From IMG/VR virus record IMGVR_UViG_3300034101_000486, positions 1 through 58,016 of that record: a stretch of 58,016 nucleotides of DNA; one strand, written 5' to 3'. Positions within the stretch are counted from its first letter, which is position 1. Each line of letters begins with the position of its first letter. Positions 11,413-30,267 of the stretch are shown piece after piece. This stretch comes from a virus (lineage: Duplodnaviria > Caudoviricetes). A program made the position numbers and the translations under genes. Below the pieces are notes generated by a model. That model searched no databases, was not told the origin of the DNA, and worked only from the letters and a program-made list of their open reading frames with translations.

Positions 11413-12038
11413 GTTCTCTCCTTGATGTCGTAGAACCAGTCATCACCGGCAGACCACTTACGTGTGCCGTCCACGGTCCAGAGCCGTTGCGCCGCTTGAA
11501 AGTCGGGGAACTTCGTCTCAGCGGGTATCAAGCTCTGGTCGTACCACAGGCAGCGGTTGTTCGGCTGGCAGGCGAACTGCCCGTTGTCAAGGGCGATCCA
11601 GTTGAAGGACTTGTGCTCCTCGGCTTGCTCAGTGAAGGTCGTGTCCAGCTCCATTCCGTCGGCGCAGAAGTCCACGGTAAACAGGTAGCGCCCAAAGTGC
11701 CACTCCTTGTCCTTACCGAGGAACTTGACACCGAGGTTGCGCAGGGCGATCTTCTCAATGATTGTGAACCGGTAGCTCATGCAGTCCCACAGCTGAAGCG
11801 TATCAACCGGCAGGTTGCCCGCGTCAGCGTGCCATACGTAAGCATGTATAGGTAGCTTATCGTACAACGCGCCGTAGTTGGGTAGCAACGACTCAATGCG
11901 GAACACCTGCCCGCGCAGAGCCTTGAGGCTCACCCAGACTGCCGGTTCAAGCTCGTTGTGACCTTTGTGGTCGTTGTACAGGAACTCTCGCTTGACGTAG
12001 CACTTGAGCGGCGGTAATGAGGCAACGATGTAGCTCAT
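11409..12038 (-). CDS. Conserved phage hypothetical protein (209 aa)
   Basis: SD AGGAG; LPPLKCYVKREFLY, LQLWDC, NGQFACQPNNR motifs; function unknown. Confidence 0.75.
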   Translation of the reverse strand: MSYIVASLPPLKCYVKREFLYNDHKGHNELEPAVWVSLKALRGQVFRIESLLPNYGALYDKLPIHAYVWHADAGNLPVDTLQLWDCMSYRFTIIEKIALRNLGVKFLGKDKEWHFGRYLFTVDFCADGMELDTTFTEQAEEHKSFNWIALDNGQFACQPNNRCLWYDQSLIPAETKFPDFQAAQRLWTVDGTRKWSAGDDWFYDIKERT

Positions 12039-16728: not shown

Positions 16729-16980
16729 ATGACACACGACCGCCGCTACGACAAATTAATCGCTGATTGCCGCAACATTGAAAGCCGCAGCAATCGCCTC
16801 GCCGTTGACGAAATCATTGACAGCGCTCGCATTAACGCTAACGACACCGTCCGCGACGAGAAGCTCGACTTGAGCGAGTGGGATCGCATGTTCACCGCGA
16901 CCCTCGCTGGCATTTTGAGCGAAGGCGGTCGTAATCATCACGTCGTCGCTTTTTTCACTAAACGTGGTATCACTTTTTAA
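16729..16980 (+). CDS. Early hypothetical protein (83 aa)
   Basis: SD GGAG, first gene after promoter. Confidence 0.75.
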   Translation: MTHDRRYDKLIADCRNIESRSNRLAVDEIIDSARINANDTVRDEKLDLSEWDRMFTATLAGILSEGGRNHHVVAFFTKRGITF

Positions 16981-17007
16981 TAACTTTATAACTCGGAGAA
17001 CTCAATC

Positions 17008-17307
17008 ATGAACATCAACAAAACAATCATCGCTCGCATCGAAGAGTACCGCGCTACTAACAAGAACCCTTGCAAGAGCTACGCCACTGAAGCCGCCGCT
17101 GAGAAGGCTACCGCTCAAATGGCGCAGGACGTCGCTAACTACTTCCACAAAGAGCGCGGTGTTGAGGCTCGCCCTGCTCAGTACATCGTCATCTATAACG
17201 AAGCATGGGGTCGCTGGGTCGGCGCTATCAACATGACCGAGCTGATTCAGCGCTCATCAAGCACTGGCGGCTACATCGGATACTGCACAGGCTTCTTCGT
17301 TTTCTAA
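17008..17307 (+). CDS. Early hypothetical protein (99 aa)
   Basis: SD GGAG, biased codon usage. Confidence 0.75.
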   Translation: MNINKTIIARIEEYRATNKNPCKSYATEAAAEKATAQMAQDVANYFHKERGVEARPAQYIVIYNEAWGRWVGAINMTELIQRSSSTGGYIGYCTGFFVF

Positions 17308-17335
17308 TTTCAACTCAATAACTCAATAACTCACC

Positions 17336-18166
17336 ATGACTTCAATCGACAACATGACTAACGATCTGAGCGCTGCTCCGGTCTATCGGGACACCTGCGC
17401 TAAGTGCGGCGGCGATGGTCGCTGGAAGGGCTTCGGCGACTGCACCGGTGACATGCGCTGCACCATGTGCAACGGCGTGGGCTACAAGGAGTTCAAGACC
17501 TCCTCTGACGAACGCGCCAAGGCTCGCGAAGCCGCCGCTCGCGCTAAGGCTAAGAAGGAAGCCGAGCAGCGTGCTCGCGCTGAGCAGTGGTTCGCCGCTC
17601 ACCCCGCAGAAGCCGCATGGATGCGCGAGTCTGCTGAGGGCTTTGAGTTCGCTCAGTCTATGATAGACGCTGTGTACGCGTATGGTCACTTGACCGAGCG
17701 TCAGATGGAAACTGTGCAGCGCCTCACTCAGAAGGCTTTAGAGCGTAAACAGCAGTGGGCTAAGGAACGTGCTGAGCGCGAAGCCGCAGCGCCAGAGGTT
17801 ACCTCTGAGCGTCTTGAGCAGTCATTCCGCAACGCCAAGGCTAAAGGTCTCAAGTGGCCACGCATCACCATGGGCGAAATGGTCATCAAACCTGCTGGTG
17901 AGAACAGCAAGAATCCTGGTGCGCTCTACGTGACTGAGTATGGCGCATACCTCGGCAAAGTGATGAATGGTAGATTCCTGAAGGTGCGCGAATGCGGCAC
18001 TGAGCAAGAGCAGAAGGTCGTTGGCTTGATCAACGATCCCGTGGGCGCAGCGGAAGCATACGGTCACCTGACCGGTCACTGCTGCATTTGCAACCGAGAG
18101 CTGACCAATGCTGAAAGCGTGTCTCGCGGTATCGGTCCAATCTGCGCCGATAAATTCGGCTGGTAA
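17336..18166 (+). CDS. Zn-finger protein with C-terminal DUF6011-like domain
   Basis: N-terminal CxxCxGxG repeats; C-terminal GHCCICNRELT..ES..RGIGPICA. Confidence 0.75.
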   Translation: MTSIDNMTNDLSAAPVYRDTCAKCGGDGRWKGFGDCTGDMRCTMCNGVGYKEFKTSSDERAKAREAAARAKAKKEAEQRARAEQWFAAHPAEAAWMRESAEGFEFAQSMIDAVYAYGHLTERQMETVQRLTQKALERKQQWAKERAEREAAAPEVTSERLEQSFRNAKAKGLKWPRITMGEMVIKPAGENSKNPGALYVTEYGAYLGKVMNGRFLKVRECGTEQEQKVVGLINDPVGAAEAYGHLTGHCCICNRELTNAESVSRGIGPICADKFGW

Positions 18167-18191
18167 TAACTTAATAACTAGGAGAACTGTA

Positions 18192-18368
18192 ATGGTATCG
18201 CGTATCACATTCCTGCTCATCCTGATCGCGCTCGGCGCGGTTGGGACGTTTGATTACGAGAACGCACTTGACGAAGAAGCCGCCTACTGCGACCGCCTGC
18301 GCAACGAAGTGCACACTGACTACAACCGCATCAAGAGCACCTGCGTGGCTCGTTACTGGGGCAAGTAA
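18192..18368 (+). CDS. Small protein with N-terminal membrane anchor (58 aa)
   Basis: ATG 18192 after AGGAG; MVSRITFLLILIALGAVG... Confidence 0.7.
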   Translation: MVSRITFLLILIALGAVGTFDYENALDEEAAYCDRLRNEVHTDYNRIKSTCVARYWGK

Positions 18369-18369
18369 C

Positions 18370-18486
18370 ATGAACACCCCTAACTGGCCATTCCCGCCCA
18401 TCACTGGTCCTGTGCCTTGGACTGCTAAGCAGATCCGCGAGTATGCGCGTAAGCAGATCGAGCAGACCGAAAAAGCCCCCTTTTAA
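18370..18486 (+). CDS. Small hypothetical protein (38 aa, MNTPNWPFPPITGPVPWT...)
   Basis: Starts right after previous stop. Confidence 0.55.
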   Translation: MNTPNWPFPPITGPVPWTAKQIREYARKQIEQTEKAPF

Positions 18487-18511
18487 TCTAGATTTTCCTT
18501 GGAGATTTGAA

Positions 18512-18940
18512 ATGAATACAGTAAACTTTTCCAGCATGACGACTCCTCAGTTGGTGTCGTTCTACAACCGCCATAGCACAACACCGGTCAAGCGCTTTAG
18601 TGACCGTAAAACCGCCGAGCGGCGTTGTGCTGAGGTCTTTGAGAGCTTGCTCTCCCCTGTACCTACTAGCAAAGTGATTAAACAAGTGGTTGATACCTCT
18701 ACCCGCCCCGTCATGAAGGACTCGCTCAAGCTCGACCGCACCATCATCTGCGTGAACACCGGCGACACGTGGAAGAACGCCTATCAGATGTGGCGCGACA
18801 ATCCTGACTGGATGACCAGCGCTCAGCAAGACCGCCTGACCGCACAGCTCTACGCCGCCGCTAAGGTCGGTGAGCAGAAGATTATTGAAATCAACGCCCG
18901 CAGCTTCATGCTCGTCAACATTAAAGGCGCAAAGAAATGA
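18512..18940 (+). CDS. Hypothetical protein (142 aa)
   Basis: ATG 18512 after GGAG; LVSFYN...VKRFSDRKTAERR N-terminal motif. Confidence 0.7.
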   Translation: MNTVNFSSMTTPQLVSFYNRHSTTPVKRFSDRKTAERRCAEVFESLLSPVPTSKVIKQVVDTSTRPVMKDSLKLDRTIICVNTGDTWKNAYQMWRDNPDWMTSAQQDRLTAQLYAAAKVGEQKIIEINARSFMLVNIKGAKK

Positions 18941-19161
18941 GCGACAACCAGCCGAAATTAGAAGGTGTCAAATGGTTCACGAGCAGTAAGGGTCTCGTGG
19001 GCATCGTGGCTGTCAGAATTGAGACCGGCGACATCAAGTTCTACATTGGTCCCGCTGATGGTTTTAATGAAGTGATCGACTCTAATCTGATCATGTCACA
19101 CGGAGCGCCCTTCCCTGAGGACGCAGGCTACGCATTGTTTATAAGAGAGGAATTGAAATGA
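18937..19161 (+). CDS. Hypothetical protein (74 aa)
   Basis: ATGA-coupled on both sides. Confidence 0.65.
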   Translation: MSDNQPKLEGVKWFTSSKGLVGIVAVRIETGDIKFYIGPADGFNEVIDSNLIMSHGAPFPEDAGYALFIREELK

Positions 19162-20114
19162 GTACGGTATTTCCTAACCTATCGCTCGACCGCAGCGTGG
19201 TCAAGTGGGAGCAACACCTCGGCACGCAGACGCCGTGGGAGAACCGCAAGGGGTTGTGGTTCAAACGCGAGGATTACTTCGCCCCGCTCGGCTATAGCGG
19301 TCCTAATGGCTCAAAGATGCGCCAGCTGATTTGGTACGTCAATCGCTTCCGCGAGGGCAAGACCCACATTGTCACCGGCGCGAGCATTCAGTCCCCGCAG
19401 CTGAGCATGAGCGCTATCGTCGGTGCGCATTACGGCTTACGCGCTCGGCAGATCGTCTATAGCAAGCCTGAGACTGTGTTGCGTCATGAGAACCCGCGCA
19501 TCGCTTACGGCTTTGATGCTGAGTTTGAGTTCGCCTCTGGTCCGTACAATCCTATCCTGCAGCGCAAGGTGGTTGACCTCACGCAGCCGACGTCTCTGGT
19601 CGTTGAGTACGGCATCACTGTGCCGCATGACCGCTACCCTGAGGAAGATGTGCGTAAGTTTCACGAGGTCGGCGCTCATCAGACAACTAACATTCCGCCT
19701 GAAGTCAAGCGCCTCATCGCTCCTGCTGGGTCTTGTAACTCGCTGACCAGCATCATGCTCGGTCTGAGCCGCGACTCGCACAACATTGATGAACTGTTCA
19801 CCATTGGTATCGGTCCAGACAAGCGCGGCTGGATGCGTCAGCGCCTTGCGTATATCGGCGTGGACATTGACAAGCTGCCGTTCAAGTGGAAACACTTTAG
19901 CCTGCATGACAGCGGCTACAGCAAGTATAGCGATCACTTCACCGGTGAGACTTTTGACGGCATCAGGTTCCACCCGACCTACGAGGCAAAGATGTGGCGT
20001 TGGTTGACACACCATAACCAGTTAGATTATGATGACCACACGGCGTTCTGGATCGTCGGCAGCGCCCCAGATACGAAGATTGTTGAACCTTTTTATACTA
20101 GGAAGCCCTCATGA
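19158..20114 (+). CDS. PLP-dependent enzyme (fold type II), putative decarboxylase acting on amino-acid-modified thymidine in DNA
   Basis: WFKREDY, NGSKMRQ (PLP lysine), PAGSCNS, HPTYEAK; context as in ViI/M6-type hypermodification clusters. Confidence 0.8.
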   Translation: MSTVFPNLSLDRSVVKWEQHLGTQTPWENRKGLWFKREDYFAPLGYSGPNGSKMRQLIWYVNRFREGKTHIVTGASIQSPQLSMSAIVGAHYGLRARQIVYSKPETVLRHENPRIAYGFDAEFEFASGPYNPILQRKVVDLTQPTSLVVEYGITVPHDRYPEEDVRKFHEVGAHQTTNIPPEVKRLIAPAGSCNSLTSIMLGLSRDSHNIDELFTIGIGPDKRGWMRQRLAYIGVDIDKLPFKWKHFSLHDSGYSKYSDHFTGETFDGIRFHPTYEAKMWRWLTHHNQLDYDDHTAFWIVGSAPDTKIVEPFYTRKPS

Positions 20115-21106
20115 AAGATTACCGCCTGCCGGAGAACCGCGCAGAGTACTTTACTGCGCTTTACAAGATGAACCTTGAGCACGGGGTCATGCCAGGACTC
20201 GTCTACTTGTACATGCCTGAAATCGCTCGCCGTTACGGGTGGAACGCTGAGCAGAAGCTCTGGTTCGCCTTCCTGAACGGCATGACGCAGAACCCAATCA
20301 CCTCGCTGCGGTTGTTTGATCAGCTACCCGTCACCCCTCCCGCTGGTGCCCAGCTGACACGCTTCACTGAATGGTTCAACGCCGAGTGGGATACGCTTCA
20401 GTTTGACACCGACCGCCGCTATCAGAAGCGCGACACCATTGAGGCTATCAAGACCTACGCTAAGTTGGTTGAGGAGTTCGGCTCTCAAGAGGCGATGCTG
20501 ACCGGTAAGACCTACGAGGAGTTGTGGGACCTCGTGCGTAACCGCTACTACAGCTTCGGTCGCCTGTCATCGTTCAGCTACCTCGAGTATGTCTACCTGA
20601 ACGGCTACGGCGCTGACTGTGATGACCTGCTGTTCAGTGACAAGTCGGGCAGCAAGTCACACCGCAACGGAATGCTGTTCCTGATTGGCAAAGACGAGTT
20701 GGTGTGGGACAAGCGCCTGCCTAACGGACAAGACGGCAACTACCCTAAATTCAATCTGATGTGCGGCTTCCTCGCTGCGGAGGCTGACAAGTTTGTTGAC
20801 ACCTTCAGAGCCGCGAACCCTGACGTGCCTAACACCGGTCGGTTCACTATGGAGTCAAACCTCTGCACGTTCAAGAATCATTTCTTCGGTCGTCGGTATC
20901 CAGGAGTCTACGCTGACATGGCGCAAGACCGTATTGAGTGGGCGGATGCGCGTGATCAGAGCGCCTATACCGAGGTGTTTAAAGATATGCGCTCTCAGCT
21001 GCTGCCGGAATGGTTGCGCCGCGAGTGTTCTGAGACGTCATTCAAGTTGGCGGGGGCGGTGTTCCCTGCGACCGGTTCACCCTACAGAGCGGAGCACTTT
21101 TTATGA
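20111..21106 (+). CDS. Amino acid:DNA transferase (aGPT-Pplase2/ADDT family)
   Basis: DYRLPENR start, KLWFAFLNG, HhH-like FGRLSSFSYLE, ESNLCTFK, RYPGVY. Confidence 0.75.
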   Translation: MKDYRLPENRAEYFTALYKMNLEHGVMPGLVYLYMPEIARRYGWNAEQKLWFAFLNGMTQNPITSLRLFDQLPVTPPAGAQLTRFTEWFNAEWDTLQFDTDRRYQKRDTIEAIKTYAKLVEEFGSQEAMLTGKTYEELWDLVRNRYYSFGRLSSFSYLEYVYLNGYGADCDDLLFSDKSGSKSHRNGMLFLIGKDELVWDKRLPNGQDGNYPKFNLMCGFLAAEADKFVDTFRAANPDVPNTGRFTMESNLCTFKNHFFGRRYPGVYADMAQDRIEWADARDQSAYTEVFKDMRSQLLPEWLRRECSETSFKLAGAVFPATGSPYRAEHFL

Positions 21107-21678
21107 ACGTCATACTACGTATTGCCGGCACGTTCGGCTCGGGCAAGACCACCGCCATGCGCGACTTCTTCAACTACCCGCACACAGTTTTGATGAGCGG
21201 TAAAAAGATCGCTGGCTACAAAGTTGACGCCAGCGCTGCCGGAATCACGCAGCCGATCTTTGTGGTTGGTAAGTATGACAACACTTGCGGCGGCACAGAC
21301 GCTATCAAGACACAGGCTGAGATTGCCGAGAAGATCCTGAAAGCACACCCCCATGGCCATGTGTTATACGAAGGCGCTTTGGTGTCTGCGAGCGGACTCG
21401 CCGGTCAGGTGACGCAAGCCATTCACCCCACCGGCTGCGACGTGTACGCATTCCTAGACACGCCGCAAGACCTCTGCGTTGAGCGCGTTAAGGGTCGTCG
21501 CCTCGCCGCTGGCAACGACAAAGAGTTCGACCCGAAGAACCTGATTGACAAGTTTGAGTCGGTCGTGAACTGTTATAAAAACCTGCGCAATGAAGGTTCG
21601 TATGACGTCCGTCGTATTGATCACACTGACCCGCACCCTCAGCTAGTAGAAATCATAAAGGAATATGAAAATGCGTGA
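21103..21678 (+). CDS. P-loop kinase, putative 5-hmdU DNA kinase
   Basis: IAGTFGSGKTT, VGKY..TCGGTD, LYEG, FLDTP..LC.ERV..RR; embedded in modification operon. Confidence 0.8.
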   Translation: MNVILRIAGTFGSGKTTAMRDFFNYPHTVLMSGKKIAGYKVDASAAGITQPIFVVGKYDNTCGGTDAIKTQAEIAEKILKAHPHGHVLYEGALVSASGLAGQVTQAIHPTGCDVYAFLDTPQDLCVERVKGRRLAAGNDKEFDPKNLIDKFESVVNCYKNLRNEGSYDVRRIDHTDPHPQLVEIIKEYENA

Positions 21679-22591
21679 TGAATGCCCGTACCCGATGCCG
21701 ACCGCCGAGACTGTGTGCTCGATGGAAGGTCTACTTTACTTCATCTGGGAGCGTGAGGCAATCCGTATCGCTCGCGAAAACGGTCACAGCGCTCCGTGGA
21801 CTAAAGACCCCGTGCTCGCTAAGTACAAGTTTACCAACATCCACCGCAGCGACGACCGCGTCTCGCAGTGGGTCATTGATAAGTTTATAGAACCCGCAGC
21901 GGCTAACGGAGATGAAGACCTGTGGTTCACGCTCTTGATCGCTCGCCTGATCAACTGGCCACCCACGCTACAGGCGCTCATCAACAAGGGTGTCATCCCC
22001 TGCAAACCTGAGAGCTTTGACGCTGACATGTTTGAGCACACGCTTGAGCGCCTGAAGAACGACGGCAAGAAGGTCTACTCCGGCGCGTACATGCTCTACC
22101 CGACTAAGATGGAGCCAGGAGGCAACAAGTCCAAGGCGGTGGCAAAGTACATCATCGGCAGCGCTATTGAGAACGCTGACAATATTCGCGCCGCGCTGTG
22201 GGTGAACGAGAACGGCATGTCTATTGAGAAGTTTGTCGCTGAGTTGAGCAAGTGCTTCGGCATCAGCACCTTCATAGCCGGTCAGGTGGCTGCTGATTTG
22301 ACCTACACCGGCATGGACGTTGAGGACTTGTTCACGTACGCGCCTATCGGTCCTGGCAGTTCACGCGGTCTGAATTACCTGCTGGGTAAAGCGCCGTTCG
22401 CCACGTGGAAGCAGAAAGAGTTCAACGCCGAACTGAGTAACATCTTCAGTCAGATCATTGAGCAGCTAGAGATTGTTGACATGACGCTGCACGATGTGCA
22501 GAACTGTATGTGTGAGTTCAGCAAATACTGCCGCGCCGTCCTCGGCGAAGGTAAACCTAAAACAACTTATCAACCAGAAACGGAGTTCTAA
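21665..22591 (+). CDS. aGPT-Pplase1 family protein (alpha-glutamyl/putrescinyl thymine pyrophosphorylase clade 1)
   Basis: ERE.IR...PWT.DPVL..YKFTN..R.DDRVS, GAY, GQV.ADL, GPGS.RGL, DVQNCMCEFSKY. Confidence 0.85.
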   Translation: MKMRDECPYPMPTAETVCSMEGLLYFIWEREAIRIARENGHSAPWTKDPVLAKYKFTNIHRSDDRVSQWVIDKFIEPAAANGDEDLWFTLLIARLINWPPTLQALINKGVIPCKPESFDADMFEHTLERLKNDGKKVYSGAYMLYPTKMEPGGNKSKAVAKYIIGSAIENADNIRAALWVNENGMSIEKFVAELSKCFGISTFIAGQVAADLTYTGMDVEDLFTYAPIGPGSSRGLNYLLGKAPFATWKQKEFNAELSNIFSQIIEQLEIVDMTLHDVQNCMCEFSKYCRAVLGEGKPKTTYQPETEF

Positions 22592-22592
22592 A

Positions 22593-23630
22593 ATGGAGTT
22601 AGTCGTACGCAACGTCAATCAGGCTTTCAGCGAGATATTCTGGAAGCTCAAAGTGCTCAACCTACAACCTGAGCAGACCCGAAATGGTCCCGCTATCGTG
22701 TACCCTGAGATGGTGACCACGGTCTATAAGTGCCCGTCAGAGCGCGTGCTGTTCCACAAAGGGCGCGACGCTAACCCGATCTTTCACCTGATGGAGTCGA
22801 TCTGGATGCTCGCCGGACGTAACGATGTTGCGTTCCTGCAACAGTTCAACCGGCGCATGGTGGAGTTCAGCGACGACGGCAAGACATTCAACGCCGCCTA
22901 CGGCTACCGCTGGCGTAAGCACTTCGGTCATGACCAGCTTGACGAAGTCATCAAGACCCTGCGCCGCGACCCTGCCAGCCGTCAAGCCGTGGTGCAGATC
23001 TGGGACGACGCTGATTTGAACAAGAAGACCAAGGACAAGGCGTGCAACATGCAGGTCATCTTTGATACACGCGGCGGTCGCCTGAACATGACCGTAATCA
23101 ACCGGTCTAACGATATCTGGTGGGGTGCGTACGGCGCGAACGCTGTGCACTTTAGTTTCCTGCAGGAGTTCGTTGCCGCTGCGATAGCGTACAGAATCGG
23201 CGTGTACCGTCAGGTGAGTAATAATTTCCACTTATACACAGAACTTTATAACGCGAAAGATTACTTAGTCATGCCGCCCGATGCGAGCAACTACGACCAT
23301 TACTCCAACGGCGCAGTGCGCCCACTGCCTATCATGTTGAACGGCGAGTACAAACTGTTCCTAGCTGAATGTGAGATGTTCTGTCACGACCCGTACAACG
23401 AGCGGATTCACTATGCTAACCCGTTCTTTGAGCACGTGGCTCGCCCTATGGCTATGATCAGTCGTGTGCGCAAGATTCACGCGGGTGACGGACGTAGCTA
23501 CGCCGCTAAGATCCGCGCCGAGGACTGGCGTCGCGCCGCGTTTGAGTGGATTGACCGCCGTGACCACGCACGCAAGATCAAAGAGGAAGATGACGAGATA
23601 AATGAGTTTAGAAAGGCTGAGAAAAAATAA
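22593..23630 (+). CDS. Thymidylate synthase homolog, putative dUMP hydroxymethylase
   Basis: TRNG, ANPIFHL.ES.W.L.GRND, AYG.RW, SRQAV, KDKACN (catalytic Cys), RSNDIWWGAYGAN with Asn suggesting dUMP rather than dCMP; start at ATG 22593. Confidence 0.85.
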   Translation: MELVVRNVNQAFSEIFWKLKVLNLQPEQTRNGPAIVYPEMVTTVYKCPSERVLFHKGRDANPIFHLMESIWMLAGRNDVAFLQQFNRRMVEFSDDGKTFNAAYGYRWRKHFGHDQLDEVIKTLRRDPASRQAVVQIWDDADLNKKTKDKACNMQVIFDTRGGRLNMTVINRSNDIWWGAYGANAVHFSFLQEFVAAAIAYRIGVYRQVSNNFHLYTELYNAKDYLVMPPDASNYDHYSNGAVRPLPIMLNGEYKLFLAECEMFCHDPYNERIHYANPFFEHVARPMAMISRVRKIHAGDGRSYAAKIRAEDWRRAAFEWIDRRDHARKIKEEDDEINEFRKAEKK

Positions 23631-23631
23631 C

Positions 23632-23670
23632 TTGCCTTGTGCGAGAAATGTGAGCTATAATTGCTCACAT
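23632..23670 (+). promoter_or_regulatory. Promoter TTGCCT-N18-TATAAT with -10 inside an 8-bp inverted repeat
   Basis: ATGTGAGC-TATAATT-GCTCACAT at 23648-23670. Confidence 0.7.
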
Positions 23671-23695
23671 AACTGCTAACTGGAGAACTTTTACT

Positions 23696-24184
23696 GTGAA
23701 ACATACTCTTGATTTTATTCTGGCTGGAAGCGAAGTAAAGCGCTATCACACCGTAACGACGCTGGTGTCCGAGACTGTCGGTCATCACTCGCACGGCGTG
23801 GCTATGCTGTGCTTGCTCTTTGACCCTATGGCGAGCCGTCAACTGCTGATGGCTGCGATGTTTCACGACCTCGCGGAACACCAAACCGGTGACATACCCT
23901 CGCCGGCAAAACGCGAGTTCGGCATCGGTGGCAAGGTTGATGAGTTAGAACAGCGCCTCATGTACGCTGCCGGAATCGTCATGCCCCAACTCTCCGCTGA
24001 AGACAAGCGCACCCTCAAGCTCGCCGACGTGGCTCAAGGGGCGCTGTTCTGTGCGCGGGAAATCTCACTCGGTAACAAACGCATGCGCCGCGTCTTTGAC
24101 CGCTACATCAGCTACGCGGAAGAGCTGATTCTGGTCGGTCGCGAGCGCGAAATCTTCAACATGATTAAGGACTACGCAGCATGA
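23696..24184 (+). CDS. HD-domain deoxynucleotide phosphohydrolase (YfbR-like)
   Basis: VKRY, ETVGHHS, FHDLAE..TGDIPSP.K, LKLAD. Confidence 0.85.
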   Translation: MKHTLDFILAGSEVKRYHTVTTLVSETVGHHSHGVAMLCLLFDPMASRQLLMAAMFHDLAEHQTGDIPSPAKREFGIGGKVDELEQRLMYAAGIVMPQLSAEDKRTLKLADVAQGALFCAREISLGNKRMRRVFDRYISYAEELILVGREREIFNMIKDYAA

Positions 24185-24450
24185 GCGCGAATGATAAACA
24201 GATTGGCGGTAGCCATTACAAGCACGGCGGCGAGGAACACTGGGACCGCGTCAATCGCTTAGGCTTGAACTACTTTCAAGGCGCGGCTACAAAGTACGTT
24301 GAGCGTTGCTACCTGAAAGGTAACACTGTTCAAGACTTGCAGAAAGCCGTTCACTTCCTTGAGAAGTTGATCGAGATCGAGCAGCGTAAGGCTGATGCGT
24401 CTTGCGGTGACGGCAGTGAGCCGACCCGTGGTTATGTCAATCAAGACTGA
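24181..24450 (+). CDS. DUF3310 (SaV-like / T7 gp1.7-related) protein, possible nucleotide kinase
   Basis: QIGGSHYK...G..TKYVER...KG..QDLQKA.HFLE. Confidence 0.8.
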   Translation: MSANDKQIGGSHYKHGGEEHWDRVNRLGLNYFQGAATKYVERCYLKGNTVQDLQKAVHFLEKLIEIEQRKADASCGDGSEPTRGYVNQD

Positions 24451-26293
24451 AATGGGCACTTGGGTGTTTGATACTGAAACTCTGCCCAACCGGACTTTGT
24501 TCTGCGCAAAGAACATTGAGACGGGCGAGTGGTTTGACCTGTGGCGTCATGATGACGACGCACCGGCTCGGCTCACGCGCTTTGTGCAGCAGTCGGACAG
24601 TACCTTCATCGGGTTCAACAGCAAGTCATTTGACAACGCGGTGGTGGCGGCGTTCTGCCTCGGCAGGACTGAGATTGAGATCAAGCGTATTGCCGATGAC
24701 ATCATCACGAACCGCCTGTCGCCGTGGAATGCTATGCGCAAGCACAATTTGCGTGACATCATTCTTGACGACATTGACTTGATTGAGGTCGCCCCGTCGT
24801 TCGTAGGTCTGAAAGCCTACGGCGCTCGCATGCATATGCCCAAGCTGCAAGACATGCCGATCGTTCACGACGAGATGATCACCCCTGATCAAGAGCCGAT
24901 GCTGCTCGAGTACTGCCACAACGACGTTGACACCACCGCCGAGCTGTTGAATCAGCTTGAGGGTGAGTTGTTGCTGCGTGTTGAGATGAGCCGCCGTTAC
25001 GGAGCTGACATGCGTAGCAAGTCGGACTCTCAAATGGCTGAGCAGGCGTACATCACCAGCATGGGTCTCAAGCGTCAAGACAATGAGATCCCGAAGACTG
25101 TCAGATATACGCCTCCGGCATTCCTGAAGTTTATGGATGCCGAGCTACAGGCTCTGCTTGATCGCGTCTCTGAGCACGTGTTCAATATGAATCAGGTGAC
25201 TGGGCACGTTCAACTGCCGGACTTCCTCGGCTTGAAAACAATCAAGTTTGGTTCAGGTGAGTACCAGCTCGGCGTGGGCGGCATTCATAGCGTGCATGAC
25301 AAGCAGGTGTGTCACCTCGCCGGTGATGATCACATGTGCGACATTGACGCGGCTTCGTTCTACCCGAGTATTATTCTTGAGTGCGGGTTTGTACCCGCCG
25401 CGCTCGGTAAGCGCTTCGTCGAGGAGTACCGCAAGATTTACGAGCGCCGCCTTGAGGCTAAGCGCACGGGCGATAAGATCACCGACGCCACGCTGAAGAT
25501 CTCACTGAACGGCACGTTCGGCAAGCTCGCCAGTCGTTACTCAGTGTTGTACTCGCCAGACTTGATGTTGGCGGTGACGCTGACCGGACAGTTCACCCTG
25601 CTCATGTTGATTGAGTGGCTTGAGCGAGCAGGGGCGGTCACCCTGTCAGCTAACACTGACGGTATTGCGATTCGTTACACTAAGGAGCAGAAAGAGCTAG
25701 TTGAAAAGGTGGTCAACAAATTTAGCGAGATTTCAGGCTTTGTGTTTGAGTACACGCCGTACCGCGTCCTCGCTATGAAAGACGTCAACAATTACATCGC
25801 GATCAAACCCGATCGCAAACTCAAAGTGAAAGGCATCTATGCGCCGCTCTCTCTTAAGAAAAACCCAACGGCTCAGGTATCGTCAGATGCTGTGGGGGCG
25901 TGGTTGGCAGGCGGTACTCCGTTTGAAGAGACGATTAAGTCTGCTCCGTTCACGCACTTTATCAGTGCCCGAAATGTTACCGGCGGCGGTCAGCAGAACG
26001 GCGTTTACCTTGGCAAAGTCGTACGGTGGTATCAATCAACGGACGCTAGCAATGAACCTATCAAGTACGCTACGAACGGTAACAAGGTTCCAAAGACCGA
26101 AGGCGCTAAGGCGTGCATGACGATGCTTGACAAAATAACTCATCCGGTTGATCTTGACTATGACTGGTATAACAAAGAGGCGATAAAAATCGCCATCGCG
26201 GTTGGCTGCGCACAGTATCTCACTCCGGAGCAACTTGCTCTTGTGGCACCGCCACCTAAAAAATCTAGGAAAGTTAAAAATGCAACACGGTAA
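24434..26293 (+). CDS. Family B DNA polymerase with 3'-5' exonuclease
   Basis: Exo FDTET, GFNS..FD, YC.ND; Pol DAASFYPS, K.SLNGTFGK, NTDG; start at ATG 24434 or 24452. Confidence 0.9.
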   Translation: MSIKTEMGTWVFDTETLPNRTLFCAKNIETGEWFDLWRHDDDAPARLTRFVQQSDSTFIGFNSKSFDNAVVAAFCLGRTEIEIKRIADDIITNRLSPWNAMRKHNLRDIILDDIDLIEVAPSFVGLKAYGARMHMPKLQDMPIVHDEMITPDQEPMLLEYCHNDVDTTAELLNQLEGELLLRVEMSRRYGADMRSKSDSQMAEQAYITSMGLKRQDNEIPKTVRYTPPAFLKFMDAELQALLDRVSEHVFNMNQVTGHVQLPDFLGLKTIKFGSGEYQLGVGGIHSVHDKQVCHLAGDDHMCDIDAASFYPSIILECGFVPAALGKRFVEEYRKIYERRLEAKRTGDKITDATLKISLNGTFGKLASRYSVLYSPDLMLAVTLTGQFTLLMLIEWLERAGAVTLSANTDGIAIRYTKEQKELVEKVVNKFSEISGFVFEYTPYRVLAMKDVNNYIAIKPDRKLKVKGIYAPLSLKKNPTAQVSSDAVGAWLAGGTPFEETIKSAPFTHFISARNVTGGGQQNGVYLGKVVRWYQSTDASNEPIKYATNGNKVPKTEGAKACMTMLDKITHPVDLDYDWYNKEAIKIAIAVGCAQYLTPEQLALVAPPPKKSRKVKNATR

Positions 26294-26639
26294 TCAACGC
26301 ACAGTCTACGTAGTACAAGTGGACAACAAGAAAGACCTATCCGACGCGAAGCAATATGGCTCGCTGCGGGCGGTGTTCGGCAACCCACGCAAGCCTTACG
26401 ATACCGTAGGCATGCTGGCTAAGGCGCGTCGCGTCTTGAAAGATTGGGAATCAGGTGACTACCTGCTGATGATTGGCGACCCCACGCTCTGCGCGGTGTG
26501 TATGTCAGTCGCTAGCGAAAACAACGACATCATCAACATCTTGAGCTGGGATCGGGACTCGTTCTCGTACATGCCTCAGCGATGGGACTTCGGTCAGATG
26601 GGTCTGGATTATGACGATTTTGAAACAGCGGAAGACTAA
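26280..26639 (+). CDS. Conserved hypothetical protein (119 aa)
   Basis: ATG 26280; VYVVQ...DYLLMIGDP...LSWDR. Confidence 0.7.
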   Translation: MQHGNQRTVYVVQVDNKKDLSDAKQYGSLRAVFGNPRKPYDTVGMLAKARRVLKDWESGDYLLMIGDPTLCAVCMSVASENNDIINILSWDRDSFSYMPQRWDFGQMGLDYDDFETAED

Positions 26640-26667
26640 CCGCTCAAAACCACGAAAGGAGAACAAA

Positions 26668-27408
26668 ATGTCAAACTGGCAAGATGCCTTGAGAAAAGGT
26701 AAACAAGATGTACCGCCCCGTATTTGTATCTACGGGGGTCACGGTATTGGTAAGTCCACCTTGGCTAGCAAGTTCCCAGCGCCGATTTTTATCAGCACTG
26801 AGGACGGGCTAGACTCGTTGGATGTAACGAGCTTCCCGCGTGCAACCAAGGTTGAGGACGTGGTCGACAACATCAAGACCCTCATCAAAGAGGAGCATGA
26901 GTTCAAGACTGTCGTCATCGACTCGGTTGATTGGCTCATTGAGCCGCTCATCGTGAGCAACGTGGAGTCCTCGCATGATGCTAAAGACCTTGCCTATGGC
27001 AAAGGTCAGATGCTCGTCGCTGAGGAGTTCCGCGAGATCCTGCAGGGGTTGGACGTGCTGCGCGTAAAGCGTCGTATGAACATCGTGCTGATCGCTCACG
27101 CTGCCGTGGTGAAGTTTGAAGACCCCCGCACCGAGCCTTATGACCGCTACCAGCCGAAGCTGCCTAACCGCTGCAACGCGCTGCTGCAGGAGTGGGCTGA
27201 CGTGCTTGCGTTTGCCGCGTTCAAGGTGATCATTCGCAAGTCTGACTCCGGTTTCAATAACCAGAAGACCCGTGGTGTAACGACAGGTGAGCGCTTGCTT
27301 CACTTTGTTGAGAACCCCGCGTTTGCTGCAAAGAACCGCTACACCTGTCCCGAAGAGGTCGAGATGACAATCGAAAACCTCGAGAAACTTATCCCCATCG
27401 CTAAATAA
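26668..27408 (+). CDS. Sak4-like ssDNA-annealing ATPase (AAA_24)
   Basis: IYGGHGIGKST, TEDG, VIDSVDW, IAH, AKNR; followed by SSB. Confidence 0.85.
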   Translation: MSNWQDALRKGKQDVPPRICIYGGHGIGKSTLASKFPAPIFISTEDGLDSLDVTSFPRATKVEDVVDNIKTLIKEEHEFKTVVIDSVDWLIEPLIVSNVESSHDAKDLAYGKGQMLVAEEFREILQGLDVLRVKRRMNIVLIAHAAVVKFEDPRTEPYDRYQPKLPNRCNALLQEWADVLAFAAFKVIIRKSDSGFNNQKTRGVTTGERLLHFVENPAFAAKNRYTCPEEVEMTIENLEKLIPIAK

Positions 27409-27424
27409 CTGAAGGAGCATTAAC

Positions 27425-27928
27425 ATGGCTAAATTTGGATTCGACGTCTCTGACGTCACCCCTGACACCGGCGCTACTGGCGGCGGCTCTTACGACCCTA
27501 TCCCTGAGGGTGAGTACGTACTGAAAGCACTGGACGCTGAAGAAAAAACAACCAGCGCCGGTACGGGTTCGTACATCAAAGTGAAGTTTGAAGTCGTCAA
27601 GGGTGAGTATACCGGTCGCCTGATCTGGCAGAACTTCAACATCAACAACCCGAGCGAGAAGGCTCAACGCATCGGTCGTCAGCAGATGGTAGCATGGGCA
27701 ACCGCCTGCGGTAAGCCTGACGCAGACGACACCGACAAGCTGCTTGAGAAGCCGTTCACGGCAGCGGTGAGTATTGAGAAGGGCACGGGCGGTTACTCTG
27801 ACAGCAACCGCGTCAAGGCGTTCCTGTTCAATCAGGAAGCCGCGCCAGCTAAGGCAGCGCCTAAGCCAGCGGCTAAGCCCGCCCCTGCCGCCGCTCCCGC
27901 TAGCAAGTCCGCTAACCCTTGGGACTGA
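27425..27928 (+). CDS. ssDNA-binding protein (DUF669-like)
   Basis: YDPIPEGEY, GEYTGR.IWQN, Ala/Pro-rich tail ending in PWD. Confidence 0.8.
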   Translation: MAKFGFDVSDVTPDTGATGGGSYDPIPEGEYVLKALDAEEKTTSAGTGSYIKVKFEVVKGEYTGRLIWQNFNINNPSEKAQRIGRQQMVAWATACGKPDADDTDKLLEKPFTAAVSIEKGTGGYSDSNRVKAFLFNQEAAPAKAAPKPAAKPAPAAAPASKSANPWD

Positions 27929-27932
27929 GACA

Positions 27933-28769
27933 ATGGTAGCCATTCCGCCGAGACCAGAGCAGCAGATCATTAACAGGGTCTACGCTGCTATTGAGAAAGA
28001 GAAGTCGTCAACCGACCTCTACCTCGGTCGGCTTGGCTCGTCTTTCATAGGCGAGGAATGCATACGACAAATCTGGCTTGACTGGCGCGGGTTCGCCCGT
28101 GAAGGTTTTGACGGACGTATGCTTCGCCTGTTTGAGACGGGACACTTGCAGGAGGAGCGGATCGTAGCTGATCTGCGCCGCGCAGGGTTTGCCGTCTGGG
28201 ATAAGCAAGAAGACGGTCGCCAGTTTGAGTTCATAGATGAAACCGGTCACTTTATAACTAAGGTGGACGGGGTCATCAAAGATGTTCCCGACTGCGACAC
28301 ACCACACGTGCTCGAGGTCAAGACACACAACAAGAACAGTTTCAGCGGTGTCGTAAAGAAAGGCATTCAAGAGTCAAAGCCGTTGCACTATGCTCAGGTT
28401 CAAATCAGCATGGCGCTCGGCGGCTTTACTCGCGCCCTTTACGTCGCGATCTGCAAAGACGATGAACAGTTCTACGTTGAGCGTGTCAAGGAAGACAAAG
28501 AGACACAGAAGAAACTGAAGCAGAAAATCATCAAACTGACCGAGGCGCGTCTGCGTCCTGCCGGAATCAGCGATGATGGTAGCAGCTTCGGATGTAAGTT
28601 TTGTAGCATGAAGGCGGTCTGCGTGCGTGAGGCTGAACCCTTACGTCACTGCCGCACATGCGCTATGGCCACGCCGACCCCAGCAGGGACTTGGACGTGT
28701 GAACTCAACAAGCAGACTCTCAGCATGGACGCCCAACGTGCAGGCTGTGAACATTACGAGGCTTTATGA
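27933..28769 (+). CDS. PD-(D/E)XK Cas4-like exonuclease
   Basis: C.RQIW, G...EE, VDG, LEVKT, Y.QVQ, CKFC...C; start ATG 27933. Confidence 0.85.
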   Translation: MVAIPPRPEQQIINRVYAAIEKEKSSTDLYLGRLGSSFIGEECIRQIWLDWRGFAREGFDGRMLRLFETGHLQEERIVADLRRAGFAVWDKQEDGRQFEFIDETGHFITKVDGVIKDVPDCDTPHVLEVKTHNKNSFSGVVKKGIQESKPLHYAQVQISMALGGFTRALYVAICKDDEQFYVERVKEDKETQKKLKQKIIKLTEARLRPAGISDDGSSFGCKFCSMKAVCVREAEPLRHCRTCAMATPTPAGTWTCELNKQTLSMDAQRAGCEHYEAL

Positions 28770-29242
28770 TTACAATCGGTATTGATCCAGGACTCAGTGG
28801 CGCTATTGGCGTTCTCCGTGATGGCGTGTACGTAGCCGTGGAGGATATGCCGGTTGTAGCTAAAGGCTCGGGAGCTGTGAAGAACGAAGTCGACCCCGCT
28901 GGGTTAATCACCCTGCTCAGGAAGCACGTCCCCGCTGAGGAGGCGGTATGCGTCGCGCTTGAGCGGGTGAACGCCATGCCTGGACAGGGGTCGTCTTCTA
29001 TCTTCAGTCTAGGGGACAGCTTCGGCTCTGCCCGAGCTTCTATTGCGGGGTGTCGGTATGAGACAGTTTACATGACCCCCGTGCAATGGAAGAAACACTT
29101 CAAGCTAACTAGTGACAAAGAGATGAGCAGGGCGCTCGCGATCCGTATGTTTCCTGAAGCGCCGCTCAATTTGAAAAAGCACTCCGACCGCGCCGAGTCA
29201 TTGCTCATGGCTCGCTGGTTGTATGAGACGAGGTACAAATGA
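28766..29242 (+). CDS. RuvC-like Holliday junction resolvase
   Basis: IGIDPG, LERV..MPGQG, P..WKK, DRAE. Confidence 0.9.
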   Translation: MITIGIDPGLSGAIGVLRDGVYVAVEDMPVVAKGSGAVKNEVDPAGLITLLRKHVPAEEAVCVALERVNAMPGQGSSSIFSLGDSFGSARASIAGCRYETVYMTPVQWKKHFKLTSDKEMSRALAIRMFPEAPLNLKKHSDRAESLLMARWLYETRYK

Positions 29243-29478
29243 TTGAGACACACGTCAGGGGAATCCCGTGTCAAGCCGAGATGACGGCTGGGTATTACCA
29301 GAAGCCCGACCACGGCACGTGGGCTAGCGACTGGGATTACTACGGCGGTTGGTTTGATGTGGAGTTTGAGATCTACGACCGCAAAGGCTATCGAGCCGCA
29401 TGGCTTGAGAAGAAGATGACCGCTGAAGACGAGAAGCGAATCATCAAAGAATTAACTGAAAACGCAGGAGAACATTAA
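29239..29478 (+). CDS. Hypothetical protein (79 aa)
   Basis: GIPC...SDWDYYG...DRKGYRAAWLEKK; ATGA-coupled. Confidence 0.7.
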   Translation: MIETHVRGIPCQAEMTAGYYQKPDHGTWASDWDYYGGWFDVEFEIYDRKGYRAAWLEKKMTAEDEKRIIKELTENAGEH

Positions 29479-29660
29479 TGGAAACTTTTGAACCCGCATG
29501 CCCATGGCATATTCAAGTCGGTGACTTGTTCATCGCTCCTGGTCGTGTACCCAACTCGGGCACGGTCTGGATTGGTGAAGTAAACGGCGGCGAGGGTGGT
29601 GAATTCAAAACCGAAGAACTCGCTCAAGTGCTCCGTAAGTTTTATAACGAGAACTTCTGA
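29478..29660 (+). CDS. Hypothetical protein (60 aa)
   Basis: SD AGGAG, TAATG overlap. Confidence 0.65.
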   Translation: METFEPACPWHIQVGDLFIAPGRVPNSGTVWIGEVNGGEGGEFKTEELAQVLRKFYNENF

Positions 29661-30067
29661 TGGCGAAGATAACCCCTACTCGGGTTAAAAAGCAAGTGGG
29701 TATGAACCCGATTGCTCAACTTGTGGCACGTGAAAACATGCGCAAGGCTATTATTGACCAGAAAATCCAACTCTACATGCGTGACGAAGGCGCTGAATGC
29801 GTCGACTTCTGCGTACCGATGTGGATGACCTTCCGCGCCTTAGTGGGTGCGGCTGGCGCTGACCCGAAGGTAGGAGTAGACACCTACGAGGTCAAAATCA
29901 TTCGCGGGGCAATCTCCGCGCTTGAGCAGATGATAACTAATAACACCTACCGCCGCGTAAACATTATTTCACTTGAGACGGCGCTTGACTGCGCCTACGC
30001 ATTAGTTAACAAGGTTAACTCAGTGCTGTTCAATCAAGAGTGGAATAGGCTCGCGAGCGGTGCGTGA
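29660..30067 (+). CDS. Hypothetical protein (135 aa)
   Basis: TGATG overlap. Confidence 0.7.
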   Translation: MAKITPTRVKKQVGMNPIAQLVARENMRKAIIDQKIQLYMRDEGAECVDFCVPMWMTFRALVGAAGADPKVGVDTYEVKIIRGAISALEQMITNNTYRRVNIISLETALDCAYALVNKVNSVLFNQEWNRLASGA

Positions 30068-30267
30068 TGCCTTGGGCGTATATTCGCTCACTGCTTGGAC
30101 CAGGACTTCACTGGGATAGGACGCAACAGGAACTGTTAGCGGCTATAGCTCGAGCAGACAAGGAGGGTCAGCACGACGCCGCTGACCACATTCGCATCAT
30201 ACTCCGCCTTCGTAACCGCGTGCTCATGGACGTTGAGCAAAAAGAAACCCCGCCGGAGCGGGGTTAA
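30064..30267 (+). CDS. Hypothetical protein (67 aa)
   Basis: Overlap with previous stop; last plus-strand gene. Confidence 0.55.
   Translation: MMPWAYIRSLLGPGLHWDRTQQELLAAIARADKEGQHDAADHIRIILRLRNRVLMDVEQKETPPERG
30239..30265 (-). terminator. Intrinsic terminator at convergence point
   Basis: Stem AACCCCGC-N4-GCGGGGTT followed by TCTTTTT on minus strand. Confidence 0.75.

Follow-up and report, generated by a model that had tools for sequence, protein, structure and literature searches.

Does a compact gene block in an uncultivated phage encode a working route to hypermodified thymidine and, if so, which base would it make and in what kind of virus? The question is raised by positions 19158-23630 (plus strand) of IMG/VR virus record IMGVR_UViG_3300034101_000486, the full 58,016 bp of which are referred to here as the window. 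An earlier note on this DNA had read the block as the complete thymidine-hypermodification operon of a podovirus-like phage. In our analysis, this region of a lytic, uncultivated phage very probably encodes the pre- and post-replicative core of a route to hypermodified thymidine, and the pathway would work in the steps outlined below. The kind of pathway is known; the combination of genes and the virus lineage that carries them are new. The analysis covered gene presence, homology, catalytic residues, synteny, conservation and gene fusion, from which the enzymatic steps, the donor, the extent of substitution and an anti-restriction role are predicted. The five genes are as follows:

19158-20114, plus strand: pyridoxal 5'-phosphate (PLP) enzyme, similar to gp226 of phage ViI, 318 amino acids (aa)
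20111-21106, plus strand: ADDT (aGPT-Pplase2), 331 aa
21103-21678, plus strand: P-loop kinase, predicted 5-hydroxymethyl-2'-deoxyuridine (5-hmdU) DNA kinase (5-HMUDK), 191 aa
21665-22591, plus strand: aGPT-Pplase1/HMUDK_hel protein (Pplase1), 308 aa
22593-23630, plus strand: thymidylate synthase (TS) homolog, predicted dUMP 5-hydroxymethylase, 345 aa

All five open reading frames (ORFs) that the earlier note had listed are present on the plus strand at these positions, and the family that it gave to each was borne out by profile or pairwise homology. Of the profile searches that it had proposed, those for ADDT, HMUDK_hel and Thymidylat_synt scored above their cut-offs. The kinase fell below the cut-off of PF18748 and the PLP protein had no Pfam match, but both were recovered by pairwise comparison. 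PHROGs placed all five proteins in phage families, and the predicted catalytic residues are conserved in four of the enzymes: the PLP enzyme, the ADDT, the kinase and the TS homolog.

The TS homolog would start the pathway. It matched PF00303 (80.8 bits, cut-off 24.3; E 1.2e-22) and PHROG 5131 (E 4.8e-105). Comparison by blastp revealed 45% identity to M6 gp58 (E 1e-96 to 6e-96) and 44% to PaMx11 gp51 (E 4e-88); identity was 41% to the annotated dUMP hydroxymethylase of SP10 (E 1e-44) and 30% to the hydroxymethyltransferase of Ab15599 (E 4e-23). The best solved relative was the CMP hydroxymethylase MilA (E 3.5e-23), and the best canonical TS reached 1.6e-11. In the alignment with TS, Cys151 corresponds to the nucleophile, Asp174 to Asp169 and Asn183 to Asn177. 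MilA has Asp at the position of Asn183, and the dUMP-type Asn described in the earlier note is thus in place. We predict that the protein is a dUMP 5-hydroxymethylase because it is nearer to its homologs from 5-hmdU phages than to canonical TS, and because the kinase and the ADDT would otherwise be without a substrate, no TET/JBP oxygenase having been found in Pfam scans of the window's larger ORFs.

The P-loop kinase is predicted to be a 5-hmdU DNA kinase. By blastp, it was 34% identical to PaMx11 gp49 over 171 columns (E 9.5e-19) and 30% identical to M6 gp54 (E 1.2e-8), the kinase activity of which has been published (PMC8989533). There was no BLAST similarity to ViI gp243, and comparison with solved structures returned non-significant matches only. 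The Walker A motif occupies residues 9-16 (GTFGSGKT, with Gly9, Gly14, Lys15 and Thr16), and the position of the gene relative to the Pplase1 and TS genes is the same as in M6 and PaMx11. The kinase belongs to PHROG 800, labelled 'terminase small subunit', and the GenBank records of the M6 and PaMx11 kinases are likewise mislabelled.

The neighboring Pplase1 matched PF18723, a family that Pfam labels as a helical domain of the kinase, at 151.8 bits (cut-off 25; E 3.4e-44). Its blastp identity was 30% to M6 gp55 (E 2e-38) and 26% to PaMx11 gp50 (E 8e-25), and it also matched proteins of Ab15599 and PhiW-14 (E 2e-34 and 5e-20, respectively). The homologs come after the kinase in M6 and PaMx11 and, as located by tblastn, a Pplase1-like region lies inside the 637-aa gp186 ORF of SP10, fused to the kinase. 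No solved structure matched Pplase1 in phmmer and profile searches. Judged by homology and gene order, Pplase1 is a conserved companion of the kinase. In M6, gp55 is dispensable for glycine transfer in lysates (PMC8989533).

The ADDT is predicted to swap the phosphate of 5-phosphomethyl-2'-deoxyuridine (5-PmdU) for an amino acid. It matched PF18724 over residues 43-256 (67.1 bits, cut-off 26.2; E 2.6e-18), and a six-frame search of the record with the ADDT profile scored 65.2 bits. ViI gp247, a serine:DNA transferase (PMC8989533), was the sole characterized ADDT relative with a significant BLAST score (27% identity, 351 columns, E 3e-28); blastp against the ADDTs of M6, PaMx11, Ab15599 and PhiW-14 gave nothing significant. 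The stretch Glu248-Ser249-Asn-Leu-Cys252 aligns with Glu243-Thr244-Ile-Leu-Cys247 of PaMx11 gp46, with Ser in place of Thr; this is an alignment of the motif itself, the overall hhalign probability against the M6 and PaMx11 proteins being 0.4%. In PaMx11 gp46, Cys247 is the proposed nucleophile that attacks C6 (PMC11472151), and the equivalent of Glu-Thr binds an essential metal in the 15599 enzyme (PMC13458397). Cys252 is thus predicted to be the nucleophile and Glu248-Ser249 to form the metal site. All three residues are invariant in 26/26 relatives. The ADDT matched no solved structure in phmmer and profile searches despite the existence of gp46 structures (8Z2M and 8Z2N; PMC11472151), as the subfamilies are too distant for sequence methods.

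An exhaustive profile search of 1.84 billion representative proteins yielded 293 ADDT relatives at E ≤ 0.001, and ten of the longer ones were scanned against Pfam. One of these, P0137, carries an N-terminal gp226-like PLP domain fused to the ADDT in the same order as the window genes. Over its full length, this domain shares 38% identity with the PLP protein of the window (E 2e-68), and P0137 has a weak PALP match (E 4.5e-4). The natural fusion provides independent support that the PLP and ADDT subfamilies work together. Further relatives are fusions of the ADDT with a P-loop kinase (P0127, P0132 and P0147, the last also with HMUD2) or with TET/JBP (P0130 and P0154). A separate observation is that an intein containing an HNH endonuclease domain interrupts the ADDT homolog P0144 (Intein_splicing E 2.6e-10; HNH_3 E 8.6e-10).

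The PLP enzyme appears to be of fold type II and is predicted to decarboxylate the amino-acid:thymine adduct on DNA. It matched PHROG 3650 (E 8.6e-74) and, by blastp, was 32% identical to ViI gp226 over 382 columns (E 3.8e-58); M6 gp52 gave two short matches only (E 0.006 and 0.036). Alignment with gp226 and gp52 using hhalign covered the full length at a probability of 100% (E 3.2e-50) and placed Lys53 at the SK motif of both proteins. In M6 gp52, this motif holds K36, the proposed internal aldimine lysine (PMC8989533). We predict that Lys53 is the Schiff-base lysine; it is invariant in 25/25 aligned relatives. The D-cysteine desulfhydrase 4d8t gave a weak match across its GGNK lysine motif in which the Lys53 stretch is aligned. 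Homologs were numerous, 643 clusters (90% identity) being detected at E ≤ 0.001, and the best 120 of the 643 were all at least 71% identical to the window protein. One homolog, P0057 (75% identical), has a precomputed PF00291 match and, as a lead only, PALP is present in 64-93% of the members of the nearest Atlas clusters, which consist of viral PLP enzymes.

Most fold-type II enzymes are not decarboxylases, examples being 1-aminocyclopropane-1-carboxylate (ACC) deaminase, D-cysteine desulfhydrase and threonine dehydratase. The window protein might accordingly catalyze elimination, deamination or replacement on the adduct and yield a different end product. The solved relatives detectable by sequence are D-cysteine desulfhydrases only (E 0.003-0.018), the NCBIfam models that matched, those for XcbE and the ACC-deaminase family, scored far below their cut-offs, and the identity to gp226, a proven decarboxylase, is low. 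We nevertheless consider such a reaction improbable: the desulfhydrase similarity covers only ~65 residues around the lysine, whereas the protein is homologous to gp226 and gp52 along its whole length, and both of these enzymes decarboxylate DNA-borne adducts (PMC8989533).

We evaluated the conservation of the cluster in 80 IMG/VR loci whose ADDT is 55-87% identical to that of the window. Of these, 73 were informative downstream (at least 3.2 kb beyond the ADDT) and 69 upstream (at least 1.2 kb). The ADDT, kinase, Pplase1, TS and HD genes were all present in 71/73 loci and had the same order and strand in 70/73, and the arrangement is therefore not due to chance. The exceptions were a locus without an HD match (L048), one with a different downstream context (L067) and one that was out of order. 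The HD gene follows the TS gene in 71/73 informative loci, and directly so in M6 and PaMx11. The functional module also takes in this nucleotidase-like gene and probably a MazG-like gene located elsewhere in the window:

23696-24184, plus strand: HD protein, similar to the 5'-deoxynucleotidase YfbR
9495-9830, minus strand: MazG-like pyrophosphatase, 111 aa, between the genes for the large (TerL) and small (TerS) terminase subunits, outside the cluster

The HD protein matched PF12917 (E 1.3e-10), HD_3 (E 1.5e-7) and, below the cut-off, the NCBIfam 5'-deoxynucleotidase model (E 1e-7); by blastp, it was 32% identical to PaMx11 gp52 (E 1e-15) and 36% to M6 gp59 (E 8e-14). Removal of dTMP or other competing nucleotides is a plausible function. 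The MazG-like ORF matched PHROG 1992 (E 4.7e-31) and PHROG 715 (E 1.3e-24), with only 14.8 bits against Pfam MazG. In one relative, L068, a 43%-identical MazG-like ORF lies at 3424-3726, between the PLP and ADDT genes. A dTTPase/dUTPase has been described in phage 15599, and dTTPase activity has been reported for PhiW-14 (PMC13458397). By analogy, the MazG-like protein is a candidate dTTPase/dUTPase that would keep T out of the phage DNA. Homology of this ORF to Ab15599 gp18, the dTTPase/dUTPase in question, was considered and rejected, as there was no significant similarity.

A pathway can be outlined from these assignments and from characterized systems, in which kinases add one phosphate to 5-hmdU in DNA (PMC8989533) and clade-2 aGPT-Pplases displace this phosphate with glycine (through N-alpha), serine (through the side-chain oxygen) or diamines (PMC8989533, PMC13458397). 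The TS homolog would convert dUMP to 5-hmdUMP, which host kinases would raise to hmdUTP. Competing dTMP and dTTP pools would be lowered by the HD nucleotidase-like protein and, probably, by the MazG-like pyrophosphatase, and the phage polymerase, accepting hmdUTP, would incorporate 5-hmdU instead of T. Once 5-hmdU is in the DNA, its hydroxymethyl group would be phosphorylated by the P-loop kinase, assisted by Pplase1/HMUDK_hel, to give 5-PmdU. Cys252 of the ADDT would then attack C6, the phosphate would be expelled, and a free amino acid would be joined to the exocyclic methylene. Finally, the PLP enzyme would, through Lys53, make a Schiff base with the adduct's free alpha-amine and decarboxylation would follow. 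Some of the T positions would then carry a side chain with a primary amine, which would hinder restriction endonucleases. The sequence of hydroxymethylation, incorporation, phosphorylation, transfer and tailoring inferred in the earlier note is the best-supported reading of the locus, the support being homology to the ViI, M6 and PaMx11 enzymes. In such phages, the conversion of residual 5-hmdU to T has been stated to be unexplained (PMC5889632); Pplase1 might supply the step that turns leftover 5-hmdU or 5-PmdU back into thymine.

Several observations weigh against this scheme, as a whole or in single steps. The kinase scored 25.8 bits against PF18748 (HMUDK_HMUD1), below the cut-off of 27 (E 8.8e-6), and the PLP protein matched no Pfam family at E ≤ 0.01, PALP (PF00291) included. 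Neither a dCMP deaminase (PF00383) nor a trimeric dUTPase (PF00692) was found in the window; the supply of dUMP and the phosphorylation of nucleotides would thus depend on the host. The TS homolog retains the Trp equivalent to TS Trp80, and no tested sequence feature tells dUMP hydroxymethylases and true thymidylate synthases apart. With an ordinary thymidylate synthase in this place, T in the phage DNA would be normal, and either the kinase and ADDT genes would be inactive or their products would have another target. The conserved catalytic Cys, Asp and Asn would be compatible with this, and the NCBIfam matches of the protein are to thymidylate synthase models only, all far below their cut-offs. 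The possibility is nonetheless very remote in our estimation: its scores against M6, SP10 and MilA far exceed that of the best canonical TS, there would be no substrate for the kinase and the ADDT, Pfam scans of the larger ORFs having shown no TET/JBP gene, and all genes are intact, with the order maintained in the great majority of relatives as given above.

The next set of contrary observations concerns the donor. Directly after the catalytic Cys, the window ADDT has Thr where ViI has Trp, the glycine enzymes have Lys and the diamine enzymes have Gly, and in a 2026 study two pocket residues sufficed to switch the donor specificity of an ADDT (PMC13458397). Given also the 27% identity to gp247, the donor cannot be read from homology. 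Further, among the matches listed, the cultured-phage ADDTs closest to that of the window (35-37% identity) are uncharacterized and come from mycobacteriophages and a Glutamicibacter phage. The organisms named in the tally of the search for gp226-like PLP proteins do not include mycobacteriophages, which indicates that this ADDT lineage is not always paired with decarboxylation.

The same pathway could accordingly use a donor other than serine, such as threonine, homoserine, cysteine or a diamino acid joined through its side-chain amine, and would then make an undescribed hypermodification. This possibility deserves real weight while falling well short of even probability. The low identity to gp247 and the differing pocket position speak for it, donor choice is set by very few residues and many similarity-network clusters are uncharacterized (PMC13458397), and the tailoring genes vary among the relatives, some of which lack the PLP gene or carry a methyltransferase-like ORF (a lead) between the PLP and ADDT genes. 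Against it, of the characterized systems compared, the ViI pair is the one to which both tailoring genes come closest, and the fusion of PLP and ADDT domains of the same subfamilies fits a two-step reaction like that of ViI. For decarboxylation by gp52 and gp226, the adduct must have a free primary amine; M6 therefore needs a radical S-adenosylmethionine (SAM) isomerase and ViI does not (PMC8989533). No radical-SAM gene was found in the cluster in the ORF list and Pfam scans. Serine is thus the favored donor, because both tailoring genes are closest to those of ViI and there is no radical-SAM isomerase. It also fits because O-linked serine has the free primary amine that the PLP decarboxylase requires and N-alpha-linked glycine does not. 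The favored product is 5-NeOmdU or a close analog; that the final base is exactly 5-(2-aminoethoxy)methyl-dU (5-NeOmdU) is somewhat short of an even prospect.

The last contrary observations come from the distribution of the PLP gene. It lies directly upstream of the ADDT gene in 55/69 informative loci (48 under the strict definition and 7 abutting or overlapping the ADDT), is inverted and further away in 3/69, and is absent from 11/69. The whole records behind five loci without the gene were searched. Two are 100%-complete genomes (L065 and L044) that lack it; one is a fragment with a 21-residue C-terminal remnant (76% identity) and one a fragment without a match; in the fifth, of 101.8 kb, a PLP gene lies beside a second copy of the cluster. 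L023/L093 are also among the relatives noted in this connection. Decarboxylation is thus dispensable for the lineage, considering the 11/69 loci and the two complete genomes. The remnant points to gene loss, and the phages without the gene may stop at the undecarboxylated amino-acid adduct. The record with the second copy (101,830 bp; L047 and L079) holds two differing copies of the cluster, one with a PLP gene adjoining the ADDT and the other without, and appears to combine two related genomes, by concatenation or co-assembly, rather than to be one genome.

Other genes also vary in this region. In ten loci, among them L055-L060 and L067-L069, an extra ORF of 248-256 aa lies between the PLP and ADDT genes:

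2916-3662 of locus L055: extra ORF between the PLP and ADDT genes

Pfam gave no match for the four of these ORFs that were scanned. The nearest Atlas neighbors of the L055 ORF are class-I SAM methyltransferases (scores 0.93-0.94, a lead only), and the extra ORF could add a methylation step to the hypermodification. It is conceivable, though on balance doubtful, that the clade makes one or more undescribed thymidine hypermodifications that vary between close relatives, with a non-serine donor, an intact adduct or an N-methylated amine. In that case, the subclade with the methyltransferase-like ORF would N-methylate the amine and the PLP-less relatives would keep the amino-acid adduct, and a podovirus lineage would display a natural range of DNA chemotypes built on a single genomic scaffold.

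Two further variations were observed. In L053 (6857-7795) and L034 (7029-7850), Pfam identified a DHH/DHHA1 phosphoesterase-like ORF between the PLP and ADDT genes, which may encode another nucleotide-pool enzyme. The kinase gene occurs in two divergent forms, being no more than 50% identical to the window kinase in 26/76 loci. Loci with the divergent form, L004, L010-L014, L077 and L078 among them, include some in which the flanking PLP, ADDT and TS genes are 80-95% identical to those of the window. This suggests that the kinase gene alone was replaced by recombination.

In comparison with known systems, the cluster is chimeric by homology: the kinase, Pplase1, TS and HD genes resemble those of M6 and PaMx11, and the PLP and ADDT genes those of ViI. 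When the 4.5-kb region was compared by megablast with 50,697 phage records, no match was obtained, and a sensitive blastn matched ~500 bp of the TS gene in 89 phage records and nothing else; thus, no cultured phage is close at the DNA level. ViI, a Salmonella myovirus of the Ackermannviridae that carries 5-NeOmdU, encodes the characterized proteins nearest to the window ADDT and PLP enzyme (gp247 and gp226). The predicted chemistry is the same, comprising formation of an adduct with a free alpha-amine and then decarboxylation, and neither the ViI system nor the window cluster has a radical-SAM isomerase. The two nevertheless differ in several respects. The identities are low, 27% for the ADDT and 32% for the PLP enzyme, and gp226 has 424 aa compared with 318 aa for the window protein. 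The ViI genes are dispersed over a 157-kb genome, whereas those of the window are joined by ATGA overlaps in one block with the kinase and TS genes. The polymerase and virion modules also differ, and the ViI kinase gp243 is not BLAST-similar.

The Pseudomonas siphoviruses of the Mesyanzhinovviridae, M6 (5-NedU) and PaMx11 (5-NmdU/acetylated) have homologous kinase, Pplase1, TS and HD proteins (E 1e-8 to 1e-96), and the order kinase-Pplase1-TS-HD-small ORFs-polymerase is the same as in the window. Two ORFs in the replication block of the window are further links to siphoviruses of the YuA/M6 type: a YuA_Gp49 ORF at 29239-29478 (plus strand; E 8e-15) and a Pam3_gp32 ORF at 26202-26639 (plus strand; E 1.2e-19). 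In contrast, the M6 and PaMx11 ADDTs, which are glycine transferases, have no BLAST similarity to that of the window and share the catalytic motif only. Tailoring relies on radical-SAM and PLP enzymes in M6 and on a FAD lyase and an acetyltransferase in PaMx11. Both phages encode a dCMP deaminase, which the window does not, their polymerases are unrelated to that of the window, and their virion genes are different.

The Acinetobacter phage SH-Ab 15599 (alpha-dapT) and the Delftia phage PhiW-14 (putrescinyl-T) use a dUMP hydroxymethylase, 5-HMUDK, Pplase1 and Pplase2 on 5-hmdU DNA, together with dTTP depletion (PMC13458397). Both are large myoviruses whose transferases take free diamines, such that no PLP step is needed. 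Their ADDTs are not significantly similar to that of the window, and 15599 gp18 is unlike the window's MazG-like ORF. Pelagiphages of the HTVC023P type, uncultivated genomes of ~55-60 kb, are of a related portal and capsid lineage and carry a TS and an aGPT-Pplase1 gene near the polymerase, sometimes with a 5'-deoxynucleotidase gene (PMC9599517). Only TS and Pplase1 are described in the available part of that paper, alongside a PolA polymerase, with no mention there of a kinase, an ADDT or a PLP enzyme. Cultured HTVC023P/027P records gave no match to the window ADDT among the matches listed. The window differs from this group in its full enzyme set and its PolB-like polymerase.

The earlier note had set the podoviral look of the genome against characterized examples in myo- and siphoviruses. 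The setting is less unusual than this contrast implied, TS with Pplase1 being already known from podoviral pelagiphages (PMC9599517). In a 2021 paper, 352 IMG/VR v2 contigs with 5-HMUDK homologs and a 'combinatorial permutation' of kinase, ADDT, PLP, radical-SAM and flavin genes in IMG/VR contigs were reported (PMC8989533). In the portions of the literature available, a set of kinase, ADDT and PLP genes in a podovirus was not found, although Figure 2 or the supplements of PMC8989533 may already show such contigs; nor was the pairing of an M6-type core with ViI-type tailoring found described. The biochemistry available so far comes from myoviruses (ViI, PhiW-14, SP10 and SH-Ab 15599) and siphoviruses (M6, PaMx11 and YuA) (PMC8989533, PMC13458397).

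The assignment of the virus itself is based on its structural genes, which are likely those of a podovirus. The portal is 50% identical to that of Caulobacter phage RW and 30-38% identical to those of the Roseobacter phages CRP-901/902 and the pelagiphages HTVC023P/027P; the capsid protein is 85% identical to that of RW and 44% to that of CRP-902. TerL, the adaptor and several virion proteins also match RW or CRP-902. Profile scans of the window gave no match to tape-measure, tail-tube or sheath families, many structural ORFs being unannotated, and yielded weak 'DNA ejection protein' and SU10-adaptor-like matches. To our knowledge, no podovirus is among the cultured phages that matched Pplase1, the ADDT or the PLP enzyme in the matches listed. 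The podoviral genome proposed in the earlier note is thus suggested by RW/HTVC023P-like structural genes and the lack of matches to long-tail families, with the morphology itself a prediction from them. The virus may instead have a tail type that the available profiles do not recognize: most structural ORFs have no Pfam or informative PHROG match, and the available literature gives no morphology for RW and does not mention podoviruses for CRP-901/902. We consider this rather unlikely in view of the match of portal, capsid and adaptor to the RW/CRP/HTVC023P group, in which HTVC023P-type phages are described as Podoviridae (PMC9599517), and of the profile results above.

The polymerase is family-B-like. 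It matched PHROG 1252, and the phage polymerases matched by tblastn, at 37-40% identity, carry the annotation DNA polymerase B or II. The PolB named in the earlier note agrees with this PHROG and with the annotations of the matching phages, while the Pfam PolB models all scored below their cut-offs. No relationship to the M6 and PaMx11 polymerases was detected. By these similarities, the window is a mosaic of an RW-like virion module and a DNA-metabolism module that is M6-like and ViI-like. RW was considered as a cultured carrier of the cluster and rejected: its replication module is of the PolA type, and it has no ADDT match.

Phages are known to use thymidine hypermodification as a counter-defense, and it would help the virus to resist host nucleases. 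The finding leaves the current picture of how the pathway works unchanged. What it adds is the full enzyme set in one translationally coupled block, with a different virion lineage and polymerase, in a clade that is common in metagenomes and in which tailoring and kinase genes are naturally lost, gained and swapped. The interest lies mainly in this abundance and variability. The clade provides a compact, tractable gene set for studies of ADDT donor specificity, the role of Pplase1 and the diversification of the chemistry. DNA of this kind may be under-recovered or mis-sequenced by standard library methods.

The record is rated 100% complete by CheckV. No end repeats were found in its 58,016 bp, and there are no tRNA genes in the window. 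The remaining features of its layout are as follows:

1-16.5 kb, minus strand: block with portal, large virion protein, TerL, MazG-like ORF, TerS, small ORFs, primase and helicase
16.7-30.3 kb (16729-30267), plus strand: block of replication and nucleotide metabolism genes
30.3-58 kb, minus strand: block with virion proteins, endolysin and capsid
18937-19161, plus strand: 74-aa ORF upstream of the PLP gene, joined to it by an ATGA overlap
24181-24450, plus strand: DUF3310 small protein between the HD gene and the polymerase (PF11753 E 3.3e-5; PHROG 5839 E 3.5e-22)
24395-26293, plus strand: DNA polymerase, family-B-like (PHROG 1252 E 8.3e-160)

The 74-aa ORF had no Pfam or PHROG match and was detectable in the closer relatives only; the position of the DUF3310 ORF is kept in the relatives. 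ATGA overlaps were read at 19158, 20111 and 21103. The three that had been counted for the five genes therefore exist, but two lie within the set and the first joins the 74-aa ORF to the PLP gene. The kinase and Pplase1 genes overlap by 14 nt, as previously described, if translation starts at ATG 21665, and by 8 nt from ATG 21671. The Pplase1 stop codon (TAA, 22589-22591) is separated from the TS ATG at 22593 by the 1-nt gap that had been noted. An alternative TS start exists upstream (ATG 22494); in the relatives, the TS begins directly after the preceding gene. The genes are translationally coupled, as the earlier note had described, but the set is not a self-contained operon, being part of the plus-strand block at 16729-30267. 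Promoter-like sites (12 versus 7.2 ± 2.4 expected) and terminator-like sites (17 versus 14.2 ± 4.7) were not enriched; the block is defined here by orientation and overlaps, with no claim as to transcription units.

The GC content of the window is ~54%, with a lower-GC stretch at 44-48 kb. Within this stretch (45-47% GC) lies an ORF of 1153 aa (44323-47784, minus strand) with four or five repeated stretches that match virion and 'baseplate wedge' PHROGs, probably a repeat-rich tail fiber or receptor-binding protein that was acquired separately. Finally, two ORFs on the minus strand lie between TerS and the primase. One, of 209 aa at 11409-12038, had no Pfam or NCBIfam match and matched PHROG 3704, 'ferredoxin' (E 4.9e-73). 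The other, at 10922-11161, has a thioredoxin domain (PHROG 22, E 2e-13).

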